7,808 nucleotides of DNA from Naegleria gruberi (GCA_000004985.1 GG739102.1), one strand, 5' to 3'. Counted from the first letter of the stretch, positions 2,914-7,808 are shown. Notes: generated by a model not told the origin, from the sequence alone. Numbers and translations: made by a program.

Positions 2914-2930
2914 CTCAGAGATGAAATTAA

Positions 2931-2975
2931 GTTATTGATGTACATCAATCGATAATTATTTTCGAAATAATATTA
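2931..2975. repeat. Right copy of the same imperfect direct repeat. It reads GTTATTGATGTA, then about 18 nt, then TTCGAAATAATATTA.
   Basis: It holds GTTATTGATGTA at 2931-2942 and TTCGAAATAATATTA at 2961-2975. It is the partner of the 1041-1092 copy. Confidence 0.5.
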
Positions 2976-3059
2976 TTAAATTGTGAAATAAACAACCCAA
3001 ACCAACGTTCATTTGTTGATTGAAGCAAACGTGATCATCTTTTAAAAATACTTATTAAA

Positions 3060-3231
3060 TCAATCGAAGGCGTTGTTGTATTCTTCTTGCCAGCCATCAC
3101 GGAAGAGCAATCGTGTTTACAAAAAAACTTCCGATAGGAAATAAAACACAGTCAAATCGTTCCGAGACTAGCCATTCACAACAACAGCGAAAAAAAAAAT
3201 AACAAGAAACCCCTCGCTATACAACAATAAG
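3060..3231 (+). promoter_or_regulatory. Putative promoter and 5' UTR of the HSP90-like fragment.
   Basis: The leader on the coding strand is A/C-rich. It has a poly(A) tract at 3192-3201 and an A at -3 (aagATG). This is typical of a highly expressed yeast-type gene. I could not find a convincing canonical heat-shock element (nGAAnnTTCn arrays). Confidence 0.3.
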
Positions 3232-3636
3232 ATGTCTACCGAAACATTCAAGTTCCAAGCTGAGATTAATCAATTGATGAGTTTGATCATCAATACCTTC
3301 TACAGCAATAAGGAAATCTTCTTGAGAGAATTGATATCCAATGCTTCTGATGCTTTGGATAAGCTTCGTCACATCAGTTTGACTGAACCATCAGTCTTGG
3401 ACTCTGAAAGAGAGTTGTTCATCCACATTATTCCTGATAAGGTTAACAAGACATTGACCATTAGAGACTCGGGCCTGGGCATGACTAAGGCCGATTTAAT
3501 TAATTGTTTGATCCATAGTAATCACAATCACTGGGACCTTAATAAAATGCTCTTTGAAAAAATTTTAAAAAATATTTTCTCTCTTGCTCGACAACATGCA
3601 CCCCTTAATAAAATGGAATTTCTTCTTCAAAATTGA
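3232..3636 (+). pseudogene. HSP90: HSP90 (Hsp82/HtpG family) N-terminal fragment. Homologous residues 1-91 are encoded at 3232-3504. An unrelated 43-codon tail then runs to TGA at 3634-3636. This is a truncated or chimeric HSP90-derived ORF.
   Basis: The translation starts [47 protein letters not shown]...[18 protein letters not shown]. This is the HSP90 ATP-binding N-domain up to the G1 box. The expected continuation NLGTIAKSGT...GQFGVGFYS (ATP lid and G2 box) is absent in all frames downstream. The tail [43 protein letters not shown] is instead low-complexity. Near-invariant positions are substituted: DKIRY is DKLRH here and DSGIGM is DSGLGM. Confidence 0.7.
3537..3615 (+). repeat. Exact 13-bp direct repeat CCTTAATAAAATG at 3537-3549 and 3603-3615. 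It sits inside the non-HSP90 tail just past the homology breakpoint.
   Basis: The exact 13-mer was seen twice, 66 bp apart. Confidence 0.4.
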
Positions 3637-3905
3637 AAAATATCTTTTTACTCTCGTAAACTGATAGTATCAAGTTTGAATCATCACACTAGCCTCTGTT
3701 CTTTCACCAAACAATCCGATCGTGGCAATTAGCTTCCATGTGATGACAAATGCTATTGTTGTGATTTTGATTCCTTACATTCTCCACAATGATGGAAGTA
3801 AATTGGTTTTTTGATGGTAATGATGATGATCATTTGTTACTCCACTGAAATTACATGACCGATTTATTTTTACTCATCCATAAACAATCAAGCGAAAAAG
3901 CGATT

Positions 3906-4171
3906 TTGCAACACAATGTGAAACAAGCCTAAATTCCTTCCTTATTCGAAATTAACTCAAAAAAAAAACGCTGCATTTATTGACTCACATAGTTGACAAA
4001 TCAATATTTGCAACACTTGGCAACAAGCCTTTGGTATACAATTCATCACAAGACTTTCATCATCATCACAACAAGACTTTCATCACAACCCTGGTTCACA
4101 TCTAACTGACATAACTAATTTTCAATCTTTCATCAAAATTCAAATTATCTAAAAACAAGCCTTTTTGCAAC
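3906..4171 (+). repeat. Dispersed short motif family. AACAAGCCT occurs three times (3922-3930, 4022-4030, 4154-4162). TTGCAACAC occurs twice (3906-3914, 4008-4016), with TTGCAAC at 4165-4171. The first two instances form a composite unit of 23-25 bp, TTGCAACAC-N5-7-AACAAGCCT.
   Basis: The exact 9-mers were seen at the listed coordinates. The spacing between instances is about 100 and 132 bp. Confidence 0.45.
4044..4084 (+). repeat. Imperfect tandem duplication. The sequence is CATCACAAGACTTTCATCA followed by CATCACAACAAGACTTTCATCA.
   Basis: Read directly from the sequence: two adjacent units of 19 and 22 bp sharing CAAGACTTTCATCA. Confidence 0.6.
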
Positions 4172-4290
4172 TTCACATCTACCAGATACAAAACCATAAG
4201 AAACAACCCTATTCAAATCCATTCAAGTCTCGCAGCAACAACAACACTCATCATTCATTCACTAATTAAATCCTTCGTCATACCATCACA

Positions 4291-7200
4291 ATGTTATCAG
4301 CATCAGCAGAAAATAATCTGCAAGACATGTTTGCTCAATTCCTCAAAGGTCAAAGGGTTGACACTGGAATGGAAGAAGAAAACAAAAAGTTGAAGAAACA
4401 AGTTAATTTTCTCCAAAATCTTGCCTGGGAAAAAGAGCAAGAACTTGAAGAAAGGGATAACGCATTCTATGCAATGGCTGCAAGGGTTGATGGAGGTGTG
4501 CTAGCAAAATATTATACAAAAATAGTTAAAAGTGATAGATCCTATAGAATGCAAATCAATACCATCAAACAACAACTCAAAGAGTGTGATCCAGATGATA
4601 CATTAATTATGAATTCCTTAAAGAAGAAGATTGAGACATTAAACAAGGAACAAGAAGAAGATAAATCCCAATATTTCCTTGAGTATGAGAATGCAATGAA
4701 GATTACTGATGCTGAATTACATGCCATTTACCAAAAACACAATGCAGAGATGTTGGAACAGAAAAAGTTGATTGACTATCTTTATGCAAAGAGCAACGAA
4801 TACGAGTTGACTGGAAAGAAACTTAATGATGGACTGATGGGGAAGGCGTTAGAAATTGAAATACTCAAGAAAAGAGTACAAGAGACTGAGAATCGTTTAA
4901 GAGATGAAGAAAATAGATTTTTAACAGCACAAAATCAGACAATGAATGAATTTGATCTCCGAAACAAATCATTAATTTCAGAAATGAATACTAATCATCA
5001 ATCATTAATATTAGAATTGGACACAAAGCATCAAATGTTAGTATCAGAAATGAATCAAAGATACATGACAAAATTGTCTGAGTTGGAAGAAGAAAACAAG
5101 CAATTAAGGGTCGATACATCAAATTTTTTGCTAGAGTTACAACATTCAAAGTTAAGAATTGATCAATTGGAACTTGAAGTTAAGGAAGCAAAATTAACAC
5201 AGCTAACACTTGGACAGGCAGCTATTAATCAAACTCCTACTACATATTCCAGAACTGAGGCCATGAAAGATTTCAATATCGGTGCATTTTCTGGTGATGC
5301 CATGAGTATTCTCCTTAGACCTCAACAAAGACAAACAATTAGAGAATTTCAGTTCAATCCAGAACAAGACAATGTTACAACATTCCAAGGATATATAGAA
5401 GCTTCAAGAAAAGTGGGTAAAAGAACCTTTGAGAAAAACACTTTAAACAATCATAGGTGTGCAGTAAGGAGTTACTTGAAATTTATTTCAATGTCTCCAG
5501 AGGAAATAGAAGTTATTCCACCAAATAATGATGCCATCAATGCTTGGTTGTGTTTCTTAGCAAGAGAATCAAAGGCCTTCAACACTATTTTGAATTATGG
5601 AAGAGGATTATTAAGCCATATCAGAGAAGAAACAGGTGCCAAGAACAATGCCTCAATAGACCAACTAGACTATAGAAGATTTTCTTCCACTTTGAGTAAC
5701 ATTCTCAAATCATTTGGAAATGAAGAAGAAAAGGCATTAGTATACGATGATGTGGAATACTTTAATGTAATGAAGAAGAGTTATTCATCAACAAGAAGAA
5801 CTATTCTTAGAGATAGAGCCATGTTTGCCTGTCAGAGTGCAATTGGTCAAAGACCAGACTCTATTTCATTCATGAAATTGCGTGATGTTGAGATTTTTAT
5901 CACAGTTGACAAGAGGGTCAAAATTATTTACTCAACCAGGAAAATGAAGACAATTTTGAAAAAACCTCACAAACAGCCAATCACTTCTCAACATAATGGT
6001 GATAGAGAGGTTTGTCCAAATCATGTTTTATTGAACTATCTTATCGCAAGAGGTGCTTTGGCTTCATATGACATCAATACTCCGTTGAACAAAGTTTTGG
6101 AAACTCCTGGTCAAGTATTGATAAAAACAGATATGCAAGACAAGTATTTATTTCCTTGCATGAAAGTAGATGGAACTTTTAGAGATAACAATCGTTTAAG
6201 GACTTTGTATTTCACAAGAATATATCGTCAGCTTTTTTCATTAGCTGGCTACAACAAAAAGGTCAGTGGATATTCCCCTAGAAGATCCTGCGTTACTAGA
6301 ATGATTGAACACTTTATGGACAAAAACACTTACAATGCTGGTGCAGAAGTGGTTGTTAAATGGATTGGTTGGGAAGCTGACTCTAAGGTTTTTAGAGAAT
6401 ATGTTGATGATGTTGTCAAGAACCACCTCAAAATTGGTGACATTTTTGGTTTGAATGAAAATGAACAAGACGGTGAAGAAGATGAGCAAGAGGAAGATGT
6501 TGATGAACAAGATCTAGAAGTAGAGGATGAGGAAGATGACCAATTAAATGAAGATGATGATGATTATCAACAGTCATCAGAATGCATTTTAAATGATGAT
6601 GAAATTGAACTTGAATTCATTCTCAAGATTAATGATGATCAACAATCACCAAGAAGTGTAGAGCTTAATATTGAAACAAGACCAGGATTAGACCCTCAAA
6701 TATCAGCCTACATTGAAGACAAATGTAGAACACTTTATGAATTTCCAAATGATCTCATTATCAAATTTCATTCTAAAATGAGAATTCGTTTTGTGAATTT
6801 TTTATTTTTTGCTCACTTTGAATTAATGCTTCAATTCAAAGACACTTGTAACAATAGAAGATTGAATCAAGAGCAGAGAACCAATCTTAAAATGTCAATT
6901 ATTAATGAAAGATTGAAGAATGATAATTTTAGAAAATCACTTGAAGAAGATGTTGAAAAATTTTTCACTAGAATTATGCCAAGTAATAATCCTTCTAAAG
7001 ATTCTAAATTTGATATCTATTTCAAAGGTATTGATATTCCTATTCGTTATCATGACAAAGCTATTGAGATATATGATTCTGCTGATAATGATATGAACGA
7101 TGAATCAGATCAAGATGAGGTGATGATTACATCTGGTGCAGATGAAGATGAGCAAGAAGAGGCCAACTCAAACTCATCAATCATTACATGGACAGCACTT

Positions 7201-7808
7201 TCTAGAGGAAAGACTTTTCCAAAGATTAGATATATTGCAAAGACGTTAATTTTGAGGGATTCTAAACTCAAAGATAGACTTAATGTCATTCTTCCCAAAA
7301 ACAAAACGAAATATATTGTTTCTAAAGCTTACATCATTCTTTTATTGAAGGAATTACGAGTGAAAGGACTGACAATATTACATGATTTGTTACCACATAT
7401 GAAAAGGCTCAAATCTTGGCAAAATTCTTATACAATCCCAACAAATTTTACTTCTGGAAAAGCTTTTAACAATTACTTATTAATTGAAGGTTATGGTGAA
7501 AAGTTTATTCATAAGAGTGAAAAAGTTAAAGAAAGATTTATGGAATTATTTGTTGGCAAAGATGGTAAATGCAGGGTAGTAGAATATGATGTGAACACTT
7601 TAGAAATAATTCAAGATTCTAAATATCAAAACTCCTTCAGGAAAGCATGTGATTTAACTAAATGTAATTCAAGAAGTGAATCCTATCATTTTCGTTCAGA
7701 TTCAGTTAGGGCACATTTAGAATCTTTAGATGGTATTTCCACAATTTTCAAGAAGGGTAATTATATTTCAACTGCCAATGTTTATGAAAATGAAATGTCA
7801 ATCAAACT
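4291..7808 (+). CDS. Large ORF, 3'-open, of at least 1172 aa. It encodes an N-terminal coiled coil, a central tyrosine-recombinase domain (phage-integrase, Cre/Flp, Crypton-like), an acidic linker, and an unassigned C-terminal region. It is probably the transposase of a Crypton-like mobile element or a gene domesticated from one.
   Basis: The ATG is at 4291. An in-frame TAA lies at 4267 and no earlier ATG follows it. I checked codon by codon that there is no stop through 7808, giving 1172 codons plus 2 nt. It is missing from the ORF track only because it has no stop in the window. Box I is GQRPDSISFMKLRDVEI, with R521 at nt 5851, and it mirrors lambda Int GQRVGDLCEMKWSDI. The lysine region is TRKMKT (K551/K553). 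YSPRRSCVTR (Y661, R664) sits at the HxxR position, compared with Cre HSARVGAARD. WIGWEADSKVFREY (W694, Y704) matches Cre GGWTNVNIVMNYI with the catalytic Tyr 10 residues after the Trp. An upstream region resembles a core-binding domain (RCAVRSYLKFI...AINAWLCFLARESKAFNTILNYGRGLL). The codon usage is coherent, and the antisense ORFs over it are short. Confidence 0.85.
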   Translation, partial: MLSASAENNLQDMFAQFLKGQRVDTGMEEENKKLKKQVNFLQNLAWEKEQELEERDNAFYAMAARVDGGVLAKYYTKIVKSDRSYRMQINTIKQQLKECDPDDTLIMNSLKKKIETLNKEQEEDKSQYFLEYENAMKITDAELHAIYQKHNAEMLEQKKLIDYLYAKSNEYELTGKKLNDGLMGKALEIEILKKRVQETENRLRDEENRFLTAQNQTMNEFDLRNKSLISEMNTNHQSLILELDTKHQMLVSEMNQRYMTKLSELEEENKQLRVDTSNFLLELQHSKLRIDQLELEVKEAKLTQLTLGQAAINQTPTTYSRTEAMKDFNIGAFSGDAMSILLRPQQRQTIREFQFNPEQDNVTTFQGYIEASRKVGKRTFEKNTLNNHRCAVRSYLKFISMSPEEIEVIPPNNDAINAWLCFLARESKAFNTILNYGRGLLSHIREETGAKNNASIDQLDYRRFSSTLSNILKSFGNEEEKALVYDDVEYFNVMKKSYSSTRRTILRDRAMFACQSAIGQRPDSISFMKLRDVEIFITVDKRVKIIYSTRKMKTILKKPHKQPITSQHNGDREVCPNHVLLNYLIARGALASYDINTPLNKVLETPGQVLIKTDMQDKYLFPCMKVDGTFRDNNRLRTLYFTRIYRQLFSLAGYNKKVSGYSPRRSCVTRMIEHFMDKNTYNAGAEVVVKWIGWEADSKVFREYVDDVVKNHLKIGDIFGLNENEQDGEEDEQEEDVDEQDLEVEDEEDDQLNEDDDDYQQSSECILNDDEIELEFILKINDDQQSPRSVELNIETRPGLDPQISAYIEDKCRTLYEFPNDLIIKFHSKMRIRFVNFLFFAHFELMLQFKDTCNNRRLNQEQRTNLKMSIINERLKNDNFRKSLEEDVEKFFTRIMPSNNPSKDSKFDIYFKGIDIPIRYHDKAIEIYDSADNDMNDESDQDEVMITSGADEDEQEEANSNSSIITWTALSRGKTFPKIRYIAKTLILRDSKLKDRLNVILPKNKTKYIVSKAYIILLLKELRVKGLTILHDLLPHMKRLKSWQNSYTIPTNFTSGKAFNNYLLIEGYGEKFIHKSEKVKERFMELFVGKDGKCRVVEYDVNTLEIIQDSKYQNSFRKACDLTKCNSRSESYHFRSDSVRAHLESLDGISTIFKKGNYISTANVYENEMSIK
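4363..5280 (+). other. N-terminal coiled-coil region of the large ORF, roughly residues 25-330.
   Basis: It is K/E/Q/L-rich and heptad-like, for example NKKLKKQVNFLQNLAWEKEQELEERD, LEIEILKKRVQETENRLRDEENRF and LSELEEENKQLRVDTSNFLLELQHSKLRIDQLELEVKEAKL. It has no Pro or Gly. The 12-mer TCAGAAATGAAT is duplicated internally, encoding SEMN at 4978 and 5047. Confidence 0.5.
5440..6420 (+). other. Tyrosine-recombinase domain (core-binding-like plus catalytic) within the large ORF. It spans roughly residues 385-710.
   Basis: See the motif list in the CDS entry. The residues R521, K551/553, Y661, R664, W694 and Y704 appear in canonical order and spacing. Confidence 0.7.
6454..6573 (+). other. Acidic low-complexity linker NENEQDGEEDEQEEDVDEQDLEVEDEEDDQLNEDDDDYQQ. 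A second D/E-rich patch lies at about 7072-7165.
   Basis: GAA/GAT/GAG-rich codon runs are seen directly. Confidence 0.6.

Follow-up and report, generated by a model that had tools for sequence, protein, structure and literature searches.

A divergent tyrosine recombinase open reading frame at the end of a Naegleria gruberi scaffold, probably part of a lineage-restricted mobile element

Mobile elements that carry a tyrosine recombinase (YR) are rare in eukaryotes, show a patchy distribution and are of unclear origin. Crypton is now an operational name for any eukaryotic YR DNA transposon and does not denote a monophyletic group (PMC13465315); the Cryptons described include CryptonF, CryptonS, CryptonA and CryptonI (Goodwin 2003; Kojima & Jurka 2011, PMC3212892). 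Starships, known only from Pezizomycotina fungi, carry Captain recombinases of the DUF3435 family, e.g. HhpA of Hephaestus (PMC10104507). In Discoba, the YR elements of the VIPER/TATE and DIRS types carry a charged Gag-like open reading frame (ORF) upstream of the YR (PMC6681497; PMC3266345). No report of a YR DNA transposon from Heterolobosea, Cryptons included, was found in the literature searched. Described here is an unannotated ORF in scaffold GG739102.1 of the heterolobosean amoeba Naegleria gruberi (GCA_000004985.1). The window, i.e. the whole stretch of DNA analysed, has 7,808 bp and is one entire small scaffold of the draft genome. The ORF most probably belongs to a new YR mobile element that is restricted to this lineage.

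Translation of positions 4291–7808 (+ strand) gives 1172 sense codons and zero stops up to the last base, which reproduces the count in an earlier reading made from the sequence alone (the sequence-only reading). The nearest upstream in-frame stop is TAA at 4264–4266, thus ATG 4291 is the first start. With the base composition of the region (A 0.39, T 0.29) one stop is expected per ~12 codons, and the probability of 1172 open codons is ~1e-44. In 200 shuffles of the ORF the longest open run was 155 codons, and the remaining five frames of 4291–7808 show open stretches of 90 codons or fewer. The ORF is absent from the six-frame list because the list omits ORFs that run off an end, as the sequence-only reading had surmised. 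That reading took the edge for an arbitrary window cut, but the ORF ends at 7808 because the scaffold itself ends there. It also assumed a yeast-like genome, which the host, an amoeba, does not have. The composition of the ORF is host-like, with a G+C content at third codon positions (GC3) of 0.21–0.31 vs 0.34 for the TFIIE-beta gene in the same window. The product is not among the N. gruberi NCBI proteins in the collection searched, and a search of the window found no additional ORF fragments and no internal protein repeats. The ORF is a genuine coding gene, apparently intact up to the scaffold end. Its features are as follows.

4291–7808, + strand: open reading frame of at least 1172 aa, open to the last base of the scaffold, without stop codon
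4291–5262, + strand: N-terminal region, aa 1–324, charged and rich in E, K, Q and L; matches no family
5263–5763, + strand: predicted core-binding (SAM-like) domain, approximately aa 325–491, from the Phage_int_SAM_1 match and alignments
5764–6435, + strand: predicted catalytic domain, approximately aa 492–715, from the Phage_integrase, PHROG 216 and DUF3435 matches
5851–5853, + strand: codon of R521 in box I, AIGQRPDSISFMKLRDV, in the same column as Cre R173, XerD R148 and lambda Int R212
5941–5949, + strand: K551-M-K553, candidate beta-hairpin lysine by motif, IIYSTRKMKTIL, cf. lambda Int VEQSKTGVKIAI
6271–6282, + strand: Y661-S-P-R664, HxxR position with Tyr for His, aligned with Cre H289/R292 and XerD H244/R247
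6370–6402, + strand: W694 to Y704 (WEADSKVFREY), second His/Trp position and putative nucleophilic Tyr, aligned with Cre W315/Y324 and XerD Y279
6451–6570, + strand: acidic low-complexity linker, aa 721–760, 52% D+E; repeat family D1
6571–7806, + strand: C-terminal region, aa 761–1172, with no detectable family, RT (reverse transcriptase) or RNase H motif

Four independent YR-family profiles match the ORF and are collinear in the correct N-to-C order. Phage_int_SAM_1 (Pfam) matches aa 365–398 (E-value = 1.6e-3, 19.1 bits vs a cutoff of 22.3), the PHROG 216 integrase aa 494–674 (E-value = 1.5e-5, 25.2 bits), DUF3435 (Pfam) aa 515–666 (E-value = 1.6e-3, 17.9 bits vs a cutoff of 25.8) and Phage_integrase (PF00589) aa 611–706, over profile positions 87–167 of 172 (E-value = 2.1e-5, 24.8 bits vs a cutoff of 27.1). 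By these matches, sub-threshold as the Pfam ones are, the assignment of the middle third of the ORF to a predicted two-domain tyrosine recombinase, very divergent and apparently intact, holds.

All four motifs quoted in the sequence-only reading were located, namely GQRPDS (aa 519), TRKMKT (aa 549), YSPRR (aa 661) and WIGWEAD...FREY (aa 691–704), and the distance from W694 to Y704 is the 10 residues stated there. The catalytic residues it proposed land on catalytic positions of Cre and XerD, the lysine by spacing only. The reference sequences of Cre, XerD, lambda Int and Flp were checked against PDB and gave full-length matches of 634–947 bits. A global pairwise alignment with Cre puts R521, Y661, R664, W694 and Y704 on R173, H289, R292, W315 and Y324; in that with XerD there are exact matches to R148, H244, R247 and Y279, and H270 is missed by one position. 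When all five sequences are aligned together, the ORF has its box-I Arg in one column with those of Cre, XerD and lambda Int, that of Flp being three columns away. The core-binding motif aligns with XerD, where FEKNTLNNHRCAVRSYLKF faces LAENTLNAYRRDLSMMVEW, and also with Cre and lambda Int. K551 and K553 sit 30–32 aa from R521 (Cre 28, Flp 32). In a metagenomic relative of the ORF, described below, the box-I motif is kept as AIGQRPDSIAFMKLKDI, and the motif FREYVD recurs on the same contig.

The ORF resembles Cre of phage P1 and XerD of E. coli in its predicted SAM-like core-binding and catalytic domains and in the alignment of R, H(Y)xxR, W/H and Y; the Trp at the second His position is shared with Cre and Flp. 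Identity to Cre and XerD is, however, in the twilight zone, and neither BLAST nor phmmer gives a match. Compared with Cre and XerD, the ORF has ~7 extra residues between R664 and W694, ~20–35 between the hairpin Lys and Y661, ~320 at the N-terminal end and at least 450 at the C-terminal end.

The Starship recombinase HhpA also has a Tyr at the position of Y661; this residue of HhpA, Y381, is needed for activity and cannot be replaced by His, and the authors note that Tyr substitutions at the His position recur among YRs (PMC10104507). Since Y381 is functional in HhpA, Y661 in place of His is, by analogy, compatible with an active enzyme. Telomere resolvases also have a Tyr at the His position of HxxR. 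The ORF gives no Pfam match to protelomerase. Likeness to Captains extends to the weak DUF3435 match, which runs from box I to HxxR, to the large protein with its long C-terminal extension, and to the position of the gene near the one visible junction, pointing inward. However, the DUF3435 score is below the cutoff and Phage_integrase scores higher.

The YR family has next to no known relatives. With aa 330–1172 as the query, exhaustive scanning of 1.84 billion protein cluster representatives by HMMER gave one protein, P0001 (E-value = 6e-27), from two metagenome contigs, L001 and L002. The proteomes of N. gruberi, N. fowleri, N. lovaniensis and Willaertia were within the collection scanned and their annotated proteins gave no match; further relatives were not found in the metagenome contigs, viral contigs or prokaryotic genomes scanned. 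By tblastn, the relative is 41% identical over aa 243–535, as far as the contig end, and its best conserved part is the predicted core-binding domain (MKDFNI, AVRSYLKF, NYGRGLL..IREET). It carries two frameshifts, leaving the reading frame and returning within ~70 nt, and is thus a decayed copy. The gene beside it codes for an unrelated multi-pass membrane protein, and the contig has no RT-like ORF. L001 and L002 share 1386 nt at 100% identity, and their ends (3403 and ~1386–1392), just past box I, are no more than 6 nt apart; this fits a branch of the assembly graph in a multi-copy sequence, or both contigs may have been assembled from one data set. The N. gruberi scaffold and both contigs all break inside the gene, which is often what is seen with repeats.

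At 2323–2427 of L001 the catalytic-Tyr motif recurs as a 16-aa copy, MFREYVDEVVKDKLEV, after which come 18 more codons and a stop. The copy lies ~135 nt upstream of the ATG of the relative, and the stop lies ~80 nt before that ATG with no RT between. The score of MFREYVDEVVKDKLEV was reached by 0 of 1000 shuffles, and over the entire ORF MFREYVDEVVKDKLEV matches best at aa 700–715. A longer truncated copy extending back to HxxR was considered and rejected, the similarity being limited to the 16 aa. This YR tail may represent a tandem remnant or a terminal direct repeat with which the 3′ end of the gene overlaps, or it may mark an integration site inside the recombinase gene. In the last case, with the final 16 or more codons of the recombinase, from just before the catalytic Tyr, at the left edge of the element, one may speculate that the crossover site lies inside the 3′ end of the recombinase gene and that integration would split the gene. 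Integration of archaeal SSV1-type integrases splits the integrase gene in this way; we know of no such case in eukaryotes.

Upstream of the ORF the window carries the beginning of an Hsp90 gene and a non-coding segment.

3105–3510, + strand: Hsp90 promoter block and exon 1, ATG at 3232, by homology to the intact Naegleria Hsp90 of metagenome contig L007
3511–4290, + strand: non-coding 780 nt from the Hsp90 break to the ATG of the ORF, presumed 5′ part of the element or its promoter

The DNA identity between L007 and window positions 3221–3510 is 98%. L007 runs on from ...TTGG into GTAATT, an intron of ~100 nt and then GTACTATTGCT (TIARSGT...). In the window the homology ends at 3510, 1 nt short of the exon-1 splice donor, and the remainder of Hsp90 is nowhere in the window. 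The promoter block at 3105–3135 is homologous to L007 positions 25–55, which shows a genuine Hsp90 locus with its own promoter; an origin of the exon-1 fragment as a retro-copy or chimeric mRNA, suggested by homology that stops at the splice donor and seemed to start close to the transcription start, was rejected for the 5′ side on this ground. By eye the block (GGAAG.G.AAT.G..TTTACAA.AAAC.TTCCG) is heat-shock element-like, with GAA/TTC arms. The GC3 of exon 1 (3232–3510) is 0.52 vs 0.21–0.34 in the other coding regions of the window, which fits the strong codon bias of a highly expressed gene; such bias may explain the 98% exon identity to L007 despite the far more divergent promoter. The simplest reading of the junction is that an element bearing the ORF inserted into, or rearranged, an Hsp90 copy at 3510/3511.

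Two short motifs are found in three exact copies each on the + strand between the junction and the ORF, AACAAGCCT at 3922, 4022 and 4154, and TTTGCAAC at 3905, 4007 and 4164. The cluster spans 3905–4171, and the enrichment within the window is modest, the counts being reached in 4 of 200 and 2 of 200 shuffles, respectively. These may be candidate binding sites of the recombinase or, equally, promoter elements. A left-end motif common to window position 3511 and L001 (~2297), ATCCRTNGTAA, was dropped, with a chance expectation of 0.69 in the window and regions that do not align. No tRNA or ncRNA targets were found, and there are no long repeats within 2914–7808. As a separate observation, the sequence GTAATC at 3518 shares its first five bases with the intron of the intact Hsp90. 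By eye, this donor and TTATCAG ending at 4300 could form a 783-nt phase-1 GT..AG intron; once this is spliced out, exon 1 of Hsp90 would continue in frame at codon 4/5 of the ORF, with the caveat that one in three AGs is phase-compatible by chance.

The left part of the scaffold holds two further features.

3–965, + strand: 3′ part of the TFIIE-beta (TFA2) gene, TFA2_Winged_2 E-value = 1e-15, cut by the scaffold start
1246–2913: assembly gap of ~1,668 Ns; the "ORFs" listed at 1199–2955 on both strands cross the gap and are artefacts

The fragment of TFIIE-beta matches an NCBI entry, "predicted protein, partial [Naegleria gruberi]", at 100% identity and the orthologs in N. fowleri and N. lovaniensis at 63%. 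In these two species TFIIE-beta is followed by F-box/LRR and then WH1/PBD genes, and no Hsp90 and no trace of the ORF are found within 10 kb of it.

Taken together, the ORF probably encodes the recombinase of an uncatalogued mobile element found in the Naegleria lineage only and moving by YR chemistry. The missing orthologs, the decayed relative in another context, the lack of the gene after TFIIE-beta in N. fowleri and N. lovaniensis, the broken Hsp90 and the assembly breaks inside the gene are counted as evidence for mobility or lineage restriction, and the element is probably mobile, judging from sequence and context. The protein would consist of the charged N-terminus (aa 1–324), a XerD/Cre-type recombinase, the acidic linker and at least 410 further residues, with R521, K551 or K553, Y661-x-x-R664, W694 and the nucleophile Y704 as the predicted active-site set. 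On the model of Cre and Flp, and of the mechanisms proposed for Cryptons and Starship Captains, the recombinase would bind paired sites in the element DNA. Y704, activated by R521, K553, Y661, R664 and W694, would cleave to give a 3′-phosphotyrosyl intermediate, and strand exchange would pass through a Holliday junction. The element would be excised in circular form and enter a short target of matching sequence, without target-site duplication. The element, or a rearrangement that it caused, would begin at 3511, where Hsp90 is cut after exon 1.

Several points weigh against this interpretation. Profile searches of the kind proposed in the sequence-only reading gave matches to four YR-family profiles, but the Pfam matches all score under their curated gathering cutoffs. 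The description of the motifs there as near-textbook was overstated, given these scores and the lack of any YR recovered by phmmer or BLAST. The YR was not recovered by a word-indexed search of 5.8 billion proteins or by phmmer against PDB, and tblastn against phages and plasmids gave nothing meaningful and no YR. Pairwise alignment scores are not significant by themselves (z ~1.6), and therefore the statistical weight rests on the profile matches, with the agreement of residues as corroboration. An AF2 single-sequence model of the YR has a pLDDT of 31, and the YR fold is a predicted one. For the beta-hairpin Lys (K551 or K553) the assignment follows from spacing and from likeness to SKTGVK of lambda Int, and pairwise alignments do not resolve it. 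The element is seen on its left side only, from the candidate junction at 3510/3511, and its 3′ end would be past the end of the scaffold. The argument from synteny rests on scaffolding because the link to TFIIE-beta crosses the 1.67-kb gap of Ns, and N. gruberi is distant enough from N. fowleri, by the identity of their TFIIE-beta proteins, that local synteny may not necessarily be expected. The truncation of Hsp90 could be an unrelated deletion or rearrangement, or an assembly join.

With regard to the class of element, the ORF is like Cryptons in being part of a putative eukaryotic element whose sole recognizable enzyme is a YR, in being a long protein with non-catalytic regions, in showing no terminal inverted repeat or long terminal repeat at the one junction seen, and in the proposed excision as a circle followed by reinsertion. 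It is unlike them in showing no sequence similarity to any Crypton protein, in having a Tyr for the His of the R-H-R-Y tetrad and in its heterolobosean host. GCR1_C or Ndc10 domain II (found in CryptonF and the Crypton-derived yeast genes Gcr1, Msn1, Hot1 and Cbf2/Ndc10) and DUF3504 (found in CryptonA) give no Pfam match even at E ≤ 10, with the full ORF or its parts, and the links to GCR1_C and Ndc10/Cbf2 drawn in the sequence-only reading fall away. Its further argument, that a YR-only protein is therefore a Crypton, is unsupported, the ORF and element being cut by the scaffold end and DIRS-class elements being reported in Naegleria. The label Crypton is unproven here. A more specific proposal can be made tentatively, with less confidence than the mobile-element interpretation itself: the element may represent a new Discoba-specific superfamily of YR DNA transposons, unrelated to CryptonF/S/A/I, to DIRS/Ngaro/PAT/VIPER or to Starships, intact, possibly active and with an R-K-Y-R-W-Y site.

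The truncation of the ORF leaves room for a downstream RT, and the gene could thus be the Gag-like and YR part of a YR retrotransposon (DIRS, PAT, Ngaro or VIPER-like), with RT and RNase H past the scaffold end. Such an element would move via RNA and a circular DNA copy and use its YR for integration only. Seven DIRS1-like sequences, degraded and unconfirmed, are reported in N. gruberi (PMC3266345), and "DIRS" is the largest retroelement class in the repeat annotation of N. lovaniensis, with 89 copies (PMC6125883). The VIPER-like elements of kinetoplastids, which belong to Discoba as Naegleria does, have the order Gag-like, YR, RT/RNase H, and their Gag-like ORFs give weak SMC-type matches (PMC6681497), which is compatible with a charged N-terminus followed by a YR. 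However, RT, RNase H, methyltransferase and DDE transposase give no signal in the 3.5-kb ORF, including the 450 aa after the YR, where VIPER has its RT. The N-terminal region and the YR form a single ORF with no RT between them, whereas known YR retroelements have separate or overlapping ORFs, and no similarity to DIRS or VIPER proteins was found in the scan of 1.84 billion representatives. Because of the single ORF for N-terminus and YR, the lack of RT in these 450 aa, and the YR tail of L001 ending ~80 nt before the next ORF start without RT between, the analysis leans towards a DNA element with YR and without RT, i.e. an operational Crypton, and a YR retrotransposon appears unlikely.

A further alternative, of which the sequence-only reading put forward the domesticated form, is a host gene for a domesticated or lineage-specific recombinase-fold protein that is no longer mobile and might serve, for example, as a DNA-binding or chromatin factor or as a dedicated site-specific recombinase. 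This would account for one intact ORF, longer than 3.5 kb, whose base composition and GC3 are host-like, for the absence of any direct sign of multiple copies, and for long extra domains such as those of domesticated Crypton derivatives (PMC3212892). This alternative is disfavoured and rather improbable: there is no ortholog in N. fowleri, N. lovaniensis or Willaertia and the gene is absent at the syntenic loci; the catalytic residues are all kept, whereas domesticated YRs (DUF3504 genes, Gcr1, Cbf2) have mostly lost theirs (PMC3212892). The sole relative carries frameshifts and has other genomic surroundings, and the ORF abuts a broken Hsp90 gene and has no counterpart among the N. gruberi NCBI proteins searched. 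Virophages and polinton-like viruses carry YR integrases. An integrase of a virus-like or plasmid-like element (endogenized giant virus, virophage, polinton-like virus or 2-micron-like episome) would fit a YR near the junction that points inward, with cargo that could follow beyond the scaffold. Such an origin is very improbable, as 2.9 million viral contigs show no relative by protein patterns or by a box-I DNA pattern, phage and plasmid collections and prokaryotic genomes give no match, and the window has no viral hallmark gene and a host-like composition.

An intact YR of such divergence, with one relative among 1.84 billion protein clusters, would form a deep branch of the YR tree and a second natural lineage in which Tyr occupies the active-site His position. 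It would also provide a compact candidate site-specific recombinase from an amoeba that grows in axenic culture. If the ORF belongs instead to a retroelement or a host gene, it would represent a routine annotation gap in a 2010 draft assembly.

Outside the recombinase core, the C-terminal region (aa 761–1172) gives no Pfam, PHROG or NCBIfam match and zero homologs among the 1.84 billion representatives, and its AF2 single-sequence model has a pLDDT of 35. A 22-nt inverted repeat (6991–7012 and 7712–7733, 91% complementary, arms 699 nt apart) lies in its coding region and is roughly at the edge of chance expectation for a sequence of this length. The N-terminal region is ~225 aa longer than in the metagenomic relative, with the extreme N-termini alignable. 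A coiled coil over aa 1–324 was rejected, a crude test of heptad and 3.5-residue periodicity being not significant. Within this region, positions 4967–5065 consist of three tandem 33-nt units, which encode the 11-aa repeats SLISEMNTNHQ, SLILELDTKHQ and MLVSEMNQRYM.

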